Shown here one piece after another: positions 3,926 to 10,061 of a DNA stretch of 64,000 bases. This DNA comes from an uncultured Desulfosarcina sp. (GTDB lineage: Bacteria > Desulfobacterota > Desulfobacteria > Desulfobacterales > Desulfosarcinaceae): contig CAXXWQ010000003.1 in the NCBI GenBank assembly GCA_963674945.2, forward strand, positions 448,001 to 512,000, in the 5' to 3' direction. Both the position numbers and the translations under genes were made by a program. Under the pieces are notes generated by a model that was given only the letters and a program-made list of their open reading frames with translations, made no database searches and was not told the DNA's origin. Within the stretch, counting starts at the first letter, position 1. Each line of letters begins with the position of its first letter.

Positions 3926-5227
3926 ATGTTTCGAAAAAAAACGCGTATGTCATCGGGTGTCAGCCAGCTGGATCGACAGCTGGGTGGATTGTACATTGGA
4001 GACAACGTCGTCTGGTATGACGACGCCGGAAGCCTGGCATCGATCTTCAGCCTCAATTTCATCCAGGAATCCCTGAACCGAGAAAAACCCCTCATCTACA
4101 TCTCTTTCGACCGTTCGCCCAAGACCCTCATCGAAAATTTGGGGCCCCTTGCCGAAAGCCAGTACCTGTCCATTTTGGACTGTTTTACTCACGGAAAAGG
4201 CGATGGCAGCGAGGTATTTAGCAAATTCTATGAAAAGGACGGGGCCCATTGGCCCTTTCAGATCGTCCGGATCAACGATGCGGCCAATCCGGATGTTGTG
4301 GCAGACGCCATTTATCGTCTCCATGCAACCATGAAGGGGGACGTTCGGTTCGTATTCGACTCCCTTACCGGAATGCAGGAGCTGTGGGGCGGGGAAGAGG
4401 CCATCTTGAAGTTTTACTCCCGTGCCTGTCCCCGATTGTATGAACTGGACACGATCGCATACTGGATCATGGAGAAAGGGGCGCACTCCGAACGGCTTCG
4501 GGCCAGTATCAACCAGATCGCCCAGGTGGCCATCGAATTGTCCATCAGCCGTGGCAAGTCGGCCCTGACCATTTTAAAGGCGGACAAGCGAAAGCCGGAC
4601 GCCTTGAATGTTCCACTGATCTACTGGAACGAAGGCATGGATGTGGCCTTTGAAATGGAGACGGGCAAGGGAGGCAACATCGATATCGGGGGTCGGGTGA
4701 AACAGATCCGCAACCGTCAGGGAATGTCCCAGAAGAATCTGGCGGCCTCGGTGGGTGTTTCCCCCAGCACCATATCCCAGATCGAAAGCGGTACCATCTA
4801 CCCATCGATACCGGCAATCTGTAAAATCGCCAATGTGCTGAATGTGGATGTGGCCGGCTTCTTCAAAGGGCAGACAGAGGTTGCCGAACGCCTGGTTTTT
4901 TCCGGGGGTGGCATCCCCACCAGCCTATCCGACCTTCCCCGACAGGACGTGAATGGCTATCGCCTTTCGCCCCCCGATTTCGATGCCGCTGCACAACCGT
5001 ACATCATCGAAATTCCGGCCGGCAGAAAGCTTGCCTCCCATTTCTTCGTCCACAAGGGAGAAGAGATGGGCTATGTGCTCAGCGGAAGTCTGGAGTTGAA
5101 GGTGGGCAATCGCCTGCACCGGGCTGACGAAGGGGACGTGGTCTACCTGGTATCGGACCTGCCTTCCCAGTGGAAAAATATCGGTGGAAAGATGGCCAGG
5201 TTGCTCTGGATCAAAATAAAGAAGTAA
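3926..5227 (+). CDS. XRE-family transcriptional regulator: degenerate KaiC/RecA-like N-terminal domain, HTH and cupin
   Basis: N-terminus SSGVSQLDRQLGGL...VFDSLT; HTH IGGRVKQIRNRQGMSQKNLAASVGVSPSTISQIESG; cupin HKGEEMGYVLSG. Confidence 0.85.
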   Translation: MFRKKTRMSSGVSQLDRQLGGLYIGDNVVWYDDAGSLASIFSLNFIQESLNREKPLIYISFDRSPKTLIENLGPLAESQYLSILDCFTHGKGDGSEVFSKFYEKDGAHWPFQIVRINDAANPDVVADAIYRLHATMKGDVRFVFDSLTGMQELWGGEEAILKFYSRACPRLYELDTIAYWIMEKGAHSERLRASINQIAQVAIELSISRGKSALTILKADKRKPDALNVPLIYWNEGMDVAFEMETGKGGNIDIGGRVKQIRNRQGMSQKNLAASVGVSPSTISQIESGTIYPSIPAICKIANVLNVDVAGFFKGQTEVAERLVFSGGGIPTSLSDLPRQDVNGYRLSPPDFDAAAQPYIIEIPAGRKLASHFFVHKGEEMGYVLSGSLELKVGNRLHRADEGDVVYLVSDLPSQWKNIGGKMARLLWIKIKK

Positions 5228-5296
5228 AAATCCGGGTACAGAGTGCCCGTATTTGGACTATCCTTGGAAAGGAAGATGCACTGCGATCACTGAAAA

Positions 5297-5418
5297 CCAC
5301 AGGAGTCAGAAGCCAGAATTCAGGAGCCAGAATGAATCTGATGTCGCTTCGCTCCATCGATCTCATAATATGGATCGAGACCTGATTCTGGATTCTGACT
5401 CCTGGATTCTTGTATTCT
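5297..5418. repeat. Heptamer-armed palindromic intergenic element, copy 2 (inverted relative to 1040-1158)
   Basis: ACCACAGGAGTCAGAAGCCAGAATTCAGGAGCCAGAATGAATCTGATGTCGCTTCGCTC, compared with the reverse complement of copy 1: ACCACAGGAGCCGGAAGCCAGAATCGAGGAGCCAGAATAAATTTGATGTCGCTTCGCTC. Confidence 0.8.
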
Positions 5419-5525
5419 ACGTACTTTTTAAAACGCTTTTCCCTCTTTTCCGTCTATCGGCAAAAAAAATAATAACGAGTTTCTTTTATGCGATTGTTTG
5501 GCCATAAATAGCCTGGAAAAGCTTT

Positions 5526-7187
5526 TTATGAGTTGAGTATCTTTCTGGCACTCTCGTCATTTGCATCGGCCATGTGGCGGATTCCTGTCTCTCTTGCCGT
5601 TTCCCGGTTGCCGGCAAAAATGTCGTCCCGGGTCAGTTGGGTGACGGAGAACTTTCGGGAGCCGGCAAGAAGTTGCTGCATGCCGCAGTAAAGTTTGTCG
5701 GCCAGGGTGTAAAAGGCGATCGCCCCATAGGGAATGCGCTTCATTTCGTCCTTGCCCACGATCTTTTCTACGTCGAAGTAGCAGGCAAAGATCTCCTTGG
5801 CCGTGGAGCCCACTTCGAGGACCGATTTGGGCAGCTCGTTCCAATTCCCGTTCAGGTCTCCCCGCTTTTCCGGAAAGAGCGCACCTTCGATGTTGGTCCC
5901 CACGAAGCCGGGAATCATGATGCCGCGGCCCATGCAGATCAACTTGGTAAACGGTGCACCCAGGGCCAGCCCCTTGTATATGCTGTCTTCCAGGGCAAAT
6001 CCGCCGGCAAAGGACATATCCACGACCTTGAGTCCCTTTGCCGCAAGGATACTGGCGTACTCGTACGCCTTGCTGTGCAGGGTGATGGAGGGCACACCCC
6101 AGCTTTGCATCATGTTCCACGGACTCATACCTGTTCCGCCACCCGAACCGTCGATGGTGAGCAGGTCCAGTCCCGCATCGGTGGCGAACTTGATTGCCAT
6201 GGCCAGCTCTTCCATGCCGTAAGATCCGGTTTTCAGGGTAATGCGGGAAAAGCCGATGCTTCGCAGGTATTCCACGCTGCTCATGAAATCCTCTCGCACC
6301 TGGCCCACGGATTTCAGATTGGTAGCGCCCAGGCGGCTGTGGCGGGCGAAGGATTTGATGGAACCGTTCTCAAACGCCTCTTGCACTTCGGGGATGGTGG
6401 GATCCGGATCGACCACGTAGCCCCGCTCTTTGAGGAAAATCGCATAGTCGAGACTCGTCACCTGGATCTCGCCGCCGATGTCTTTGGCGCCCTGGCCCCA
6501 TTTTAGTTCGATGATCACCTTGTCGCCGTATTTGTCGGCCACAAATTCGGCCACACCGTTTCTCGTGTCTTCCACGTTGAGTTGGACGATGATGGCGCCG
6601 TAACCGTTGTAATAACGGAAATAGCTCTCGATGCGCCTCTCCAGTTCGGGAGCCTTCTTGATCTTTCCTTTGCGCTCGGGGCCCGTGGCGATTTCCGATT
6701 CCCGATCCACACCGACCACATTCTCGCCGATGACAACGGGAATCCCGATCAGAGCACCGCCGATGGCAAAAGAGTCCCAATACTTCGCGGCGATAAAGGT
6801 GGACCCCAGGGCGCCGGTCATGAGCGGTATGCGTGACTTGGTTTTCACTTTGTTGCCGAATTCTGTCTCCAGCGTGACGTTGGGAAAAATACAATCGTCG
6901 GCATTGTCGGTCAATCCGCCGGCCATGCCCTGGGCACCGTATGCATATCCCTGGATACGAAGAGAATTATAGGAAACCCCGACGTGGGTCGTGTTGTCGG
7001 CGCCGGCGGTAACAAATCCGAAGCTCCTGGGGTAGAGCAGTTTGCGTCCCACAAGGCTGGAAAGCCAGGTCTCGCATTTGCCCGTACAGTCGGCGCGGCA
7101 CAGGGTGCACAGGCTGGATTCGGTTGGATTGCCACGGTTAGCGGTTCCCAGGGCATCATTTTTCTTGGAAAATCTCATCGATAGCAT
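5526..7187 (-). CDS. FMN-binding glutamate synthase family protein (stand-alone FMN domain)
   Basis: IELKWGQGAKDIGGE, LTIDGSGGGTGMSP, AGGF...KGLALGAP; N-terminal CxxCxxxCxxxC. Confidence 0.88.
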   Translation of the reverse strand: MLSMRFSKKNDALGTANRGNPTESSLCTLCRADCTGKCETWLSSLVGRKLLYPRSFGFVTAGADNTTHVGVSYNSLRIQGYAYGAQGMAGGLTDNADDCIFPNVTLETEFGNKVKTKSRIPLMTGALGSTFIAAKYWDSFAIGGALIGIPVVIGENVVGVDRESEIATGPERKGKIKKAPELERRIESYFRYYNGYGAIIVQLNVEDTRNGVAEFVADKYGDKVIIELKWGQGAKDIGGEIQVTSLDYAIFLKERGYVVDPDPTIPEVQEAFENGSIKSFARHSRLGATNLKSVGQVREDFMSSVEYLRSIGFSRITLKTGSYGMEELAMAIKFATDAGLDLLTIDGSGGGTGMSPWNMMQSWGVPSITLHSKAYEYASILAAKGLKVVDMSFAGGFALEDSIYKGLALGAPFTKLICMGRGIMIPGFVGTNIEGALFPEKRGDLNGNWNELPKSVLEVGSTAKEIFACYFDVEKIVGKDEMKRIPYGAIAFYTLADKLYCGMQQLLAGSRKFSVTQLTRDDIFAGNRETARETGIRHMADANDESARKILNS

Positions 7188-7254
7188 GGTTCGGCTTCCT
7201 TTCTTCGTGTAGTTGATGTTCCGTTTCCGGCGGTACGTACGATTCTTTTTCCTT

Positions 7255-7455
7255 TACAAAAAAACAAAACGGCGCCGCATCGGTGGGCTGTTGCCGACCG
7301 ATGCCAGACGCCGTTGTCTACGAGTCCGGTTACCCCAATACCCCTTTTCCCACGAACCGTGCGCCAATCGTTTGCTAATAACCCGAACTGACGAAAGATC
7401 GTGGGAAAGGCGTACGTCTGTTAACCGTCCAACCGCCGCTCACGCCGTTGTGAGC
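7255..7455 (-). promoter_or_regulatory. ANTAR-type attenuator: two hexaloop hairpins plus an overlapping intrinsic terminator
   Basis: Minus-strand GCUCAC-AACGGC-GUGAGC (7438-7455) and UAGAC-AACGGC-GUCUG (7305-7320). The second overlaps the terminator AACGGCGUC..GCAUCGGU/ACCGAUGC-GGCGCCGUU followed by a U tract. Confidence 0.82.
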
Positions 7456-7623
7456 AGTCGGATAATTGGATCCACACTTGTACGAAACGCCCCTGAAAAA
7501 CAGGAGAAGCATATCTATAGTTTTACTTAATTTTTGTCAACTGATTTTATATCGAATTCTTCAGTTTTAATTAACACGTGGCCCTACGAACCCAATTTCT
7601 GGACAGGGCAGATGGAAGGCAAC

Positions 7624-8346
7624 CTATCGATCCAAGGAGATGTCCTCGGAGAGAATGACCGCTTCGGCAATATACCGAAGTGGCTTTCTGGAGTCCATGC
7701 TGCGCTTTTGGAGCCACCGAAAGGCATCCTCTCCTTTCATCTGGCGGCGATTCATCAGAATCTCCTTAGCGCGATCCACCATCTTGCGTGTCTCCAGCTC
7801 TTCTTGAATCACCTTGGCCTTGACCATGAGTTCCGCGTTCAGGATGGCAAGGGCCGCCTGATTGGCGACGGCGGTAAACATATTGATTTCCGCGTCGGAA
7901 AATGCGTGCGGCGCGGCCGTGAAACAGTTGAGCACACCGATGATGCGATCCTCCTTGACCGTCATCGGAATTCCGACCATGGACACCACCCCTAGCTTCC
8001 TGGCCATCTCTTTTTCCTTGAAGCGGGGGTTCTTCAGCACGTCGCTGATGGCGATGGGTCGCTTGTGGGTTACCACGTAGCCCACCACCCCTTCGTTCAA
8101 GGCCAGGGATCGATCCTTTACATATTCCGGATCGATGGATTGGGTCGCCTTCAAGCGGATCTGGGGCGGCTTCGATTGTTCATCGACGAGCCAGAGGGAG
8201 CAGATTTCCACACCGGTAACCTTGGCCGTAACCATGACGATCAGCTTGAGCAGGTCCTCCAGAAAATAGTCCGATGCAATGGCCTGGCTGATGTCTGTAA
8301 GAGCCTTGAGATAGGCATCATAAGTGGCTTGATCGAGCTTTTCCAT
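7624..8346 (-). CDS. GAF + ANTAR domain RNA-binding antiterminator
   Basis: GAF region (GVVGYVV...IGVLNCF...ANQAALAI) followed by the ANTAR signature LETRKMVDRAKEILM...AFRWLQKRSMDSRKPL..IAEAVI. Confidence 0.93.
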   Translation of the reverse strand: MEKLDQATYDAYLKALTDISQAIASDYFLEDLLKLIVMVTAKVTGVEICSLWLVDEQSKPPQIRLKATQSIDPEYVKDRSLALNEGVVGYVVTHKRPIAISDVLKNPRFKEKEMARKLGVVSMVGIPMTVKEDRIIGVLNCFTAAPHAFSDAEINMFTAVANQAALAILNAELMVKAKVIQEELETRKMVDRAKEILMNRRQMKGEDAFRWLQKRSMDSRKPLRYIAEAVILSEDISLDR

Positions 8347-8517
8347 GATTGCGGATGGTACAACGATTGCTATTTATTTTCAATAATTTGTTTTGGTTAA
8401 TCCTTATTGACACAATTTTTATTGACTTTTAGTTATACTAAACTTAAATCGAAATAATTCATTTTAAATGCACTTGTATTCTCCTACTGTTGTTCCTATG
8501 GATAAATGAGGTAAATC

Positions 8518-9645
8518 ATGTGCCGTTTACTCGCCATCACGAGCAAGGAGTATGTTTCACCGCAAACTGCCGTAGAGGGACTTGCCGCCATGGGGGAAGG
8601 TTACGACGGGTCCGGTGTGGGTCTTCTGCTTCGCGATCTGGGCGGTCCATTTGCCCAAATGACGGATATTCCCATACTAAGCGGCATATTTTCCTCAAAA
8701 GGGCTCAAGCGACTGGACCGGTTCATGATGGACAAGGGGTTTACCACGAAATACAAGATCACCTTCAAGCCACGGCAACCGGTGCCGCCGTCTGTTCCCA
8801 AAAGGGACGTTTACCTCGTTCGGGCCTATGACTATCCCACGCAATGGGAAGAGATGGCGAACCAGGAGCGGCTCGATCGACTGGCGCCCATTCGACTCTG
8901 CCTGCGCGAAATGGGCGAGGCGGAGAAAGACATGATGGTCTTCTCGTTATGGCCGGATACGATTATGATCAAGGAGGTCGGTGATCCGGCGGCGGTCGCC
9001 GACTATCTGCAACTGGATCGAAACGATCTGATGGCCCGCGTGATCATGCTTCAGGGACGGCAGAACACCAATCATGAGATCGACCTGTACGCCTGCCATC
9101 CCTTCTTTTTGGAAGGTTTTTCCACCATGACCAACGGTGAGAACACGGCATTTTCCCAGAACCGTGATTTTCTCATGTCGAGAGGCATCTCGGGATACCA
9201 GGGCTATCTGTCGGATTCGGAGGTGTTCACCCACAGCCTTCATTACATCATCGGCCAGCTGGGATTGGGGCTGGGTTTCTATAAACACGGAATCACGCCG
9301 TTGTCCGACGAGGACATTCGAACGCATCCGGACGGTTCATTTCTCCAACAATTGAAATACTCCTGCCGTAATCTGATCATCGACGGCCCTAATTGCATCA
9401 TCGGCTGCCTTCCGGATACCACCTTATTCATGGTTCAGGATCGCAAAAAACTCAGACCCGGTGTCATCGGCAGTAACAATGGCACATTCGTCTTTTCATC
9501 GGAAATATGTGGCCTTGATGCCATCCTTCCACAAAGGGACAAGTCGAAAGACTTTCAGCCCATGCACCTGGACACCGCCATCGTCGGCCCGTTTCGCAAG
9601 CGGGTCGATATCTTGCAGCAGACTGACCCTGTCTTGGCAAACTAA
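8518..9645 (+). CDS. Class II (Ntn) glutamine amidotransferase, glutamate synthase domain-1-like
   Basis: N-terminal MC nucleophile, GRQNTN, ACHPF, NGEN, SDSEV, DRKKLRP, SSEICG. Confidence 0.88.
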   Translation: MCRLLAITSKEYVSPQTAVEGLAAMGEGYDGSGVGLLLRDLGGPFAQMTDIPILSGIFSSKGLKRLDRFMMDKGFTTKYKITFKPRQPVPPSVPKRDVYLVRAYDYPTQWEEMANQERLDRLAPIRLCLREMGEAEKDMMVFSLWPDTIMIKEVGDPAAVADYLQLDRNDLMARVIMLQGRQNTNHEIDLYACHPFFLEGFSTMTNGENTAFSQNRDFLMSRGISGYQGYLSDSEVFTHSLHYIIGQLGLGLGFYKHGITPLSDEDIRTHPDGSFLQQLKYSCRNLIIDGPNCIIGCLPDTTLFMVQDRKKLRPGVIGSNNGTFVFSSEICGLDAILPQRDKSKDFQPMHLDTAIVGPFRKRVDILQQTDPVLAN

Positions 9646-10061
9646 GTCCTTAGCCGGACGGCATTTCCTGCCTTAGATCATCTCCCGGCAAAGGCTTTAA
9701 TTGTCCTTCCGGATTCTTTGCCCACTCGACTGTTGTCCTGTTCATCGGCTTTTGGGCCTTTGCTTGTCATACTTTTTCATTCGCACTAAAATAGTACAAC
9801 ACTCTTTCGGCTTTGCGTCAATATTGTCAAAGTTTCATTCAGGCAACCGTATTTGGCGCGATTTTATATTTTTCGCGGGCATTGCCCGCTCCTGACTACA
9901 CCAACTAATAATTGGTTATTCGCTATACAATTTTTATTAAAAAGATACCTTTATGATAGCCTGAAAGGGCGGCCGGATTTAGTGATTAAAAGAAAGATTA
10001 GATGAAATAATAGTAGATGCTTTTATAATCCGTTAGAATCTTGATTTCCATTATACCTTTT

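Follow-up and report, generated by a model that had tools for sequence, protein, structure and literature searches.

The window, a 64,000-nt stretch of DNA from an uncultured Desulfosarcina sp. (genome G000), carries on its minus strand a GAF-ANTAR antiterminator gene and a glutamate-synthase-like gene separated by a gap of 436 nt, and a leader element with two hairpins, P1 and P2, lies within this gap (Table 1). A sister species (G016) carries a counterpart of the insert that separates the two hairpins.

Table 1. Features of the leader and its flanking genes in window positions
Feature	Positions	Strand	Properties
GAF-ANTAR antiterminator gene	7624-8346	-	240 aa; PF01590 and PF03861
Predicted sigma-70 -35 hexamer TTGACA	7535-7540	-	91 nt 5' of loop 1
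P1 hairpin	7470-7428	-	core of 8 bp (about 16 bp with its extension); AACGGC hexaloop with A1 and G4 at 7449-7444
Insert	7427-7327	-	101 nt; single long imperfect hairpin with about 34 predicted pairs
Residual single-stranded linker from insert helix to P2	7321-7326	-	6 nt, after predicted fold-out
P2 hairpin	7320-7305	-	stem of 5 bp; AACGGC hexaloop at 7315-7310; marginal in protein-free RNA
Predicted intrinsic terminator	7258-7315	-	U-tract after a stem at 7315-7268; cannot form together with P2
Regulated gene, glutamate-synthase-like	5526-7187	-	553 aa; PF01645 on residues 299-414; no NCBIfam family

In both loops the first base is A and the fourth is G, as in ANTAR hexaloops, and both stems are longer than the required 3 bp. 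The twin AACGGC hairpins recognised by the first-pass annotation are thus present on the minus strand, and the distance of 117 nt given there corresponds to the gap between the two stems (115 nt for stems of 8 and 5 bp), whereas the distance from the start of loop 1 to the start of loop 2 is 134 nt. The GAF-ANTAR gene lies upstream as annotated, and its end at 7624 is 154 nt from P1. Hairpins with AAYGGY loops number 516 in the genome, including five neighbouring pairs no more than 250 nt apart. A looser P2-terminator pattern has four matches in the genome, and inspection finds a leader with hairpin and U-tract at the ANTAR locus only. Judged from its sequence, the leader is an ordinary Desulfobacterales ANTAR attenuator of the glutamate-synthase-like gene, an identity supported by the hexaloops, the stems, the overlap with the terminator and the adjacent GAF-ANTAR gene. 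The linker of a canonical ANTAR target is short, and since the linker here is about 115 nt from stem to stem, the leader is classed as a variant and not as a canonical member.

Transcription is predicted to start near 7505. All 55 leaders examined have a TTGAC 5' of loop 1, and the consensus promoter scan does not list the TTGACA at 7535-7540. The predicted promoter is upstream of P1 and not beyond the loop 1 region, the position that had been named as incompatible with a switch. No promoter common to G000 and G016 was found between the insert and the start codon; a weak sigma-70-like site in the G000 insert is absent from G016. No substitute hexaloop with A1 and G4 was found within the insert.

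The terminator hairpin, which precedes the U-tract, takes up loop 2 together with the 3' arm of P2, and the mutual exclusivity of P2 and the terminator is seen in both free and constrained folds. The annotated overlap between the second hairpin and a strong terminator therefore holds as an overlap. The strength of the terminator is unsupported, because the consensus terminator scan omits it and the terminator fold is favoured over the antiterminator fold by 4.2 kcal/mol in G000, compared with 9.8 kcal/mol in G016. P2 alone is marginal, with a closing-pair probability of 0.03-0.19 in G000 and 0.48 in G016, as expected if the protein must hold P2.

The insert region has a predicted folding energy of -42.7 kcal/mol (z -4.7; none of 500 shuffles equally good), and the whole leader has a z of -5.3. 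All three pairings by which the spacer had been described as self-complementary occur in the minimum-energy fold. At three transcript lengths the G000 insert forms 33-34 pairs internally against 0.8-2.4 externally, and the G016 insert 44 against at most 0.04; the pairing probability of the base helix is mostly 0.8-1.0. No alternative pairing of the insert with P1, P2 or the terminator is predicted. The path from loop to loop through the fold graph takes 28 steps in G000 and 21 in G016, within the span of 14-35 in 56 short leaders. Since shuffled linkers score about as well (9 of 25 at or below the observed path in G000 and 1 of 25 in G016), this test does not discriminate. The predicted fold-out is compatible with function, and the path measure gives no sign of selection for it.

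ANTAR attenuators in the Desulfobacterales and elsewhere

The pattern of loop 1, loop 2 and terminator is found in 142 of 401 Desulfobacterales genomes, and a reversed-pattern control gives one match. Among 30 homologous loci fetched through the downstream protein, 27 have a leader; one of the other three has a terminator variant, one has lost the leader and one lies at a contig end. The loop spacing is 28-37 nt in 24 of the 27 homologous leaders and 33-34 nt in 14 of those 24, and the longer-spaced ones are G007 (57 nt), G000 (134 nt) and G016 (145 nt). Over 55 distinct leaders, from 60 loci, the spacing is below 50 nt in 48. Regulation of the glutamate-synthase-like gene is in itself usual for the order.

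A pair of A1/G4 hairpins, an overlap of P2 with the terminator and a cognate ANTAR protein are shared with Enterococcus faecalis EutV/eutP, Klebsiella oxytoca NasR/nasF and Pseudomonas aeruginosa AmiR/amiE, as described in the available parts of PMC3369931 and PMC8934654. According to the same portion of PMC3369931, eut linkers are 5-12 nt long, linkers of 3 or 14 nt cripple induction in E. faecalis, and ANTAR targets are predicted before glutamate synthase genes in Desulfotomaculum; the hit tables of that study could already include short Desulfobacterales leaders. In E. faecalis a linker extension of 20 nt abolishes antitermination (PMC8934654, available part), and curated actinobacterial ANTAR linkers are 2-25 nt long in the accessible text of PMC8164766. 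The G000 leader differs from both the eut and the curated set in its linker of about 115 nt and its long P1, and its sensor, in contrast to the EutV, NasR and AmiR systems, is a GAF domain with no signal assigned. GnfR of Geobacter sulfurreducens, from a related group, controls nitrogen-fixation genes by ANTAR antitermination, and a similar conserved loop-2 sequence overlaps the terminator there; unlike the G000 system, it is a phosphorylated response regulator acting with sigma-54 promoters, and the available part of PMC2995071 mentions no inserted hairpin. The first-pass annotation had stated that ANTAR dimers bind dual hexaloops. A target with two loops agrees with the available part of PMC8934654, and joint contact does not, since the structural model given there has the dimer contacting the loops successively and not simultaneously, with a single hexaloop as the minimal binding unit. 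Structured linker inserts are not mentioned in the available parts of PMC3369931 and PMC8934654, nor is a long linker in that of PMC12591593, and no account of long or repeat-bearing ANTAR linkers was found in the literature searched, which mostly excluded subscription journals.

Boundaries, age and origin of the insert

Subtraction of the insert gives a loop spacing of 33 nt in both species (134-101 in G000 and 145-112 in G016), which is the genus norm. The spacer is therefore a discrete insert, as had been proposed, and its removal restores the spacing of the relatives. On one side it directly adjoins the extended P1, and on the other 6 nt remain before P2. In a tree of the downstream protein with 20 rows, G000 and G016 are sisters (100/100). 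Since both nest among short-linker relatives, the insert entered once, before the two lineages split. These two species are its only carriers. Contigs of one sample span the stretch without a difference, and this sample may be the source of the assembly; two other sequencing runs cover the insert incompletely, and no RNA data set is listed among the runs that contain the stretch.

Between the two species 180 of 267 four-fold sites are identical (87 differ, 67%), and dS is 0.62. P1 has kept 39 of 46 bases and 15 of 16 pairs since the split, and its loop is altered only at a position that varies across the order. This conservation has a P of 0.006 against a background of 67%, 0.03 against 72% and 0.11, which is not significant, against 76%, and pair retention by itself is not above the null. 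The distal hairpin P1, whose dispensability would have spoken against a dual-loop switch, is thus conserved. P2 and the terminator have kept 53 of 61 bases. The insert base has kept 18 of 18, in a stretch picked after being seen, the arms 53 of 70, and the whole insert 73 of 112 columns, near the neutral level; the tip has diverged in length and sequence. Flanks for comparison are identical at 50 of 66, 50 of 70 and 37 of 58 positions. When the G000 fold is applied to G016, 22 of 25 pairs survive and two pairs have changed on both sides (P 0.007 under one null and 0.047 under another), whereas the G016 fold applied to G000, in a hand-chosen register, keeps 18 of 26 (P 0.5). The covariation looked for across orthologues is therefore mixed in these two species and depends on which fold is applied. 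Arm-to-arm correction of DNA palindromes can also imitate compensatory change.

The insert ends in a perfect 6-bp terminal inverted repeat, CGGTTA/TAACCG, plus imperfect arms; the G000 genome has 19 such 6-bp pairs, which share no family. A GGAC direct repeat overlaps both insert ends (7430-7427 and 7327-7324) and flanks both ends in both species, and the comparison that would mark it as a target duplication lacks an exact empty site. No copy of the insert was found elsewhere in G000 by blastn, nhmmer or a covariance model, so that the multiple copies typical of a MITE are lacking, and no copy above chance was found in the 401 genomes of the order. The G016 insert has no match in 65 family genomes besides its G000 counterpart, and a covariance model built from the two sequences recovers only its two seeds in 31 genus genomes. 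Twelve repeat-family profiles built from G000 give no score, an Rfam search of window positions 5000-10000, up to an E of 10, leaves the leader without a match, and no conserved unpaired core recurring across loci or lineages was found, the tip having diverged. A likeness of the insert to hammerhead or c-di-GMP-I RNA was rejected by eye against the consensus of each, in agreement with Rfam. The insert-end pattern has one record over the genome collection (L142), which is not counted as a further case. Short repeats, most of them palindromic, form at least eight families in the G000 genome, with 60-142 segments in the four largest clusters, and one short-repeat member lies at about 5290-5410 of the window.

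The insert resembles MITE-like Desulfobacterales repeats in the same linker of G521, G222 and G424, which are 100-190 nt long, non-coding and able to fold back. It differs from them in being single-copy, outside those families and perfect over only 6 bp of its terminal repeat. Since three of the four other long inserts are multicopy repeats, the analysis prefers the origin in which the insert is probably a decayed palindromic mobile repeat; local inverted duplication is the alternative.

Long linkers in other lineages

Among the matches listed from wide-gap pattern searches, a loop spacing above 100 nt recurs in four more leaders of the same gene family, which belong to genomes of four other families. 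The loop spacing is 218 nt in G521, 161 nt in G222, 171 nt in G424 and 125 nt in G523. Matches of the inserted sequence in its own genome, which include partial and both-strand hits and so are not copy numbers, amount to 10 by blast in G521, 41 in G222 and 64 in G424, and the G523 insert is single-copy with one match. At the G521 site TAT is duplicated relative to empty congeners, and the repeat family of G222 is also present in G000 and in G016, with about 40 matches per genome. The inserts in these four lineages are independent, and three of them are multicopy palindromic repeats.

In each of the six leaders with a loop spacing above 100 nt, only 0-4 of 100 shuffled linkers fold as well as the real one, and z is -2.1 to -11 in the four other lineages. 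The P1 hexaloop hairpin is kept in all four; in three of them its core was compared with that of relatives that have an empty site, and 18-22 of 22 bases agree. The ANTAR gene is kept in all five other long-linker genomes; it is no longer beside the leader in G016 and G424. Among eight leaders with moderate linkers of 52-83 nt, two fold well (G007 and G094), one is marginal and five equal shuffles. Three of the last group, L151, L152 and L153 (in G201, G272 and G093 of genus g64), have linkers of 70-83 nt that fold no better than shuffles, suggesting that moderate lengthening is tolerable without a special hairpin. In L151-L153 a palindromic repeat follows directly after the terminator, and upstream there is only a distant GAF-ANTAR-like gene (34-36%). 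A phylum-wide long-gap scan with a pattern tuned to Desulfobacterales finds, besides G000, one of 401 genomes (G743, moderately long).

Several other matches were rejected as linker inserts. The second G084 match has no P1 or gene context, and the long G039 match contains a normal leader. Two metagenome loci with the P1 pattern lack P2, the terminator and both genes and were taken as chance.

Function of the split leader

It is reasonably probable that the leader is a working ANTAR attenuator whose insert folds out passively, probably as a decayed palindromic mobile repeat, and brings the loops back to the 33-nt spacing. Transcription would start about 55 nt before loop 1, and an activated GAF-ANTAR dimer would load onto P1. 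The insert would then close on itself just before P2 leaves the polymerase, so that P1 comes to lie beside P2 and the protein could be handed to the weak P2; the base of the terminator would be blocked and the glutamate-synthase-like gene read. Without active protein the terminator would prevail. The insert would not act as a sensor; it would be carried along passively, under no constraint other than pairing at its base. The fold-out geometry put forward by the first-pass annotation is thus borne out in so far as the insert is discrete and its removal leaves 33 nt; it would presumably also restore function, a point on which the geometric test does not discriminate.

This preferred reading has to be weighed against published linker experiments. 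The available parts of PMC3369931 and PMC8934654 report loss of EutV antitermination once the linker is a few to 20 nt longer, and the insertion may accordingly have broken or weakened the switch by placing P1 too far away in time or space; the gene would then be leakily read or largely off, with P1 kept for another reason such as RNA stability. The small terminator margin of G000, the longer branch of its ANTAR protein (0.24 against a median of 0.09 in close kin) and the separation of the ANTAR gene from the leader in G016 and G424 point the same way. However, loop identity, closing pairs and stem of P1 have been kept across a dS of 0.62, a dN of 0.019 shows the target gene to be strongly constrained, and the GAF-ANTAR gene is intact in G000 and G016 with dN far below dS. 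The adjacent gene is the only ANTAR-domain gene found in the G000 genome, no further ANTAR target was found in G000 or G016 besides the leader of the glutamate-synthase-like gene, and no shared bypass promoter has appeared, so that a broken switch is unlikely. There is a similarly small chance that spacing does not matter to the GAF-ANTAR protein, P1 serving to raise its local concentration or P2 sufficing alone, and that the fold-out is incidental. The single hexaloop as minimal binding unit (PMC8934654, as far as available), the unstructured 70-83 nt linkers in three genomes of one genus and the tendency of any RNA to bring its own ends close, as in the shuffles, agree with this, whereas the tight spacing of most leaders, the better-than-shuffled folding of all six leaders beyond 100 nt and the invariance of the insert base beside a variable tip do not.

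The insert may also have been co-opted as a second input that gates the hand-off from P1 to P2, for example by being cut by a double-strand nuclease, by pausing the polymerase or by binding a ligand or protein. RNase III can cut stems of more than 30 pairs, and the insert stem is of that size; it has escaped deletion through a dS of 0.62, with two compensatory arm changes in one register. Against this stand the diverged tip, near-neutral conservation, the absence of an Rfam match and of a further instance among the 31 genus genomes searched with the covariance model, the lack of a competing fold with P1, P2 or the terminator in the predictions, and the unrelated sequences, repeats among them, that occupy the same slot elsewhere. 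The second input suggested by the first-pass annotation consequently finds no backing and is rather improbable. An assembly artefact or a chance pairing of two common motifs could draw on the abundance of AAYGGY hairpins, and is refuted because G016 has a diverged insert at the same site; the single reversed-pattern match beside 142 genomes with the real pattern also argues against it, and it is extremely improbable.

A broader reading, tentative and less likely than not, is that the ANTAR linker is a landing site for repeats. Palindromic elements of 90-190 nt would have inserted there on separate occasions in at least five Desulfobacterales lineages with the switch surviving, the linker rule would be one of distance in folded space, and the insert of the G000 lineage, with its invariant base and compensated arms, may be a domesticated timing or processing element. 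If so, every published covariance search would lack a class of 'split' ANTAR targets. Two studies find that linker lengthening blocks antitermination, and protein hand-off from P1 to P2 during transcription is the current model; the available parts of PMC3369931 and PMC8934654 do not separate a limit in space, by which the loops must be near, from a limit in time, by which P2 must follow soon after P1. Long-linker leaders are natural tests of space against time, because 90-190 nt of transcription are added and folding keeps the loops near. The value of the finding lies in this clean test of the ANTAR linker rule and in the recurrence of the inserts. If long-linker leaders work, real regulons escape target searches in which the linker may not exceed about 25 nt, and a second RNA input could be engineered into ANTAR switches at the linker.

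Several further observations concern the genes around the leader. The GAF-ANTAR proteins of G000 and G016 are 81% identical (dS 1.8) and not sisters, the target genes are 96% identical and sisters, and the G016 ANTAR gene (L162, G016:C254) lies at a separate locus with no hexaloop leader after it; the sequences suggest that the regulator was replaced or transferred. The target protein falls into two subfamilies (about 77-96% and about 52% identity), and an ANTAR leader precedes both. A 375-aa gene at 8518-9645 of the plus strand, divergent from the ANTAR gene and with no Pfam or NCBIfam match, has a homologue directly divergent from the leader in G016; its product begins with MCRL, presumably pointing to a class II glutamine amidotransferase. 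A palindrome TTAG-N5-CTAA lies in the promoter spacer just after TTGAC (7530-7515, minus strand) in most of the homologous leaders L001-L030 and is likely a repressor operator. The gene at 3926-5227, encoding a KaiC-like ATPase, XRE helix-turn-helix and cupin protein, is convergent with the target gene and similarly placed in G016, and its product is a candidate to bind this palindrome. At L010 (G025) the leader and the ANTAR gene are absent and short ANTAR-gene-like scraps abut the target start, reflecting either a natural deletion or a mis-assembly. Tandem units occur in G184 (L116, G184:C238) and G076 (L149, G076:C397), where a second loop 2 and terminator follow a complete attenuator, for which reason neither was taken as a linker insert, and L052 (G432:C24) has two dual-loop matches about 180 nt apart.
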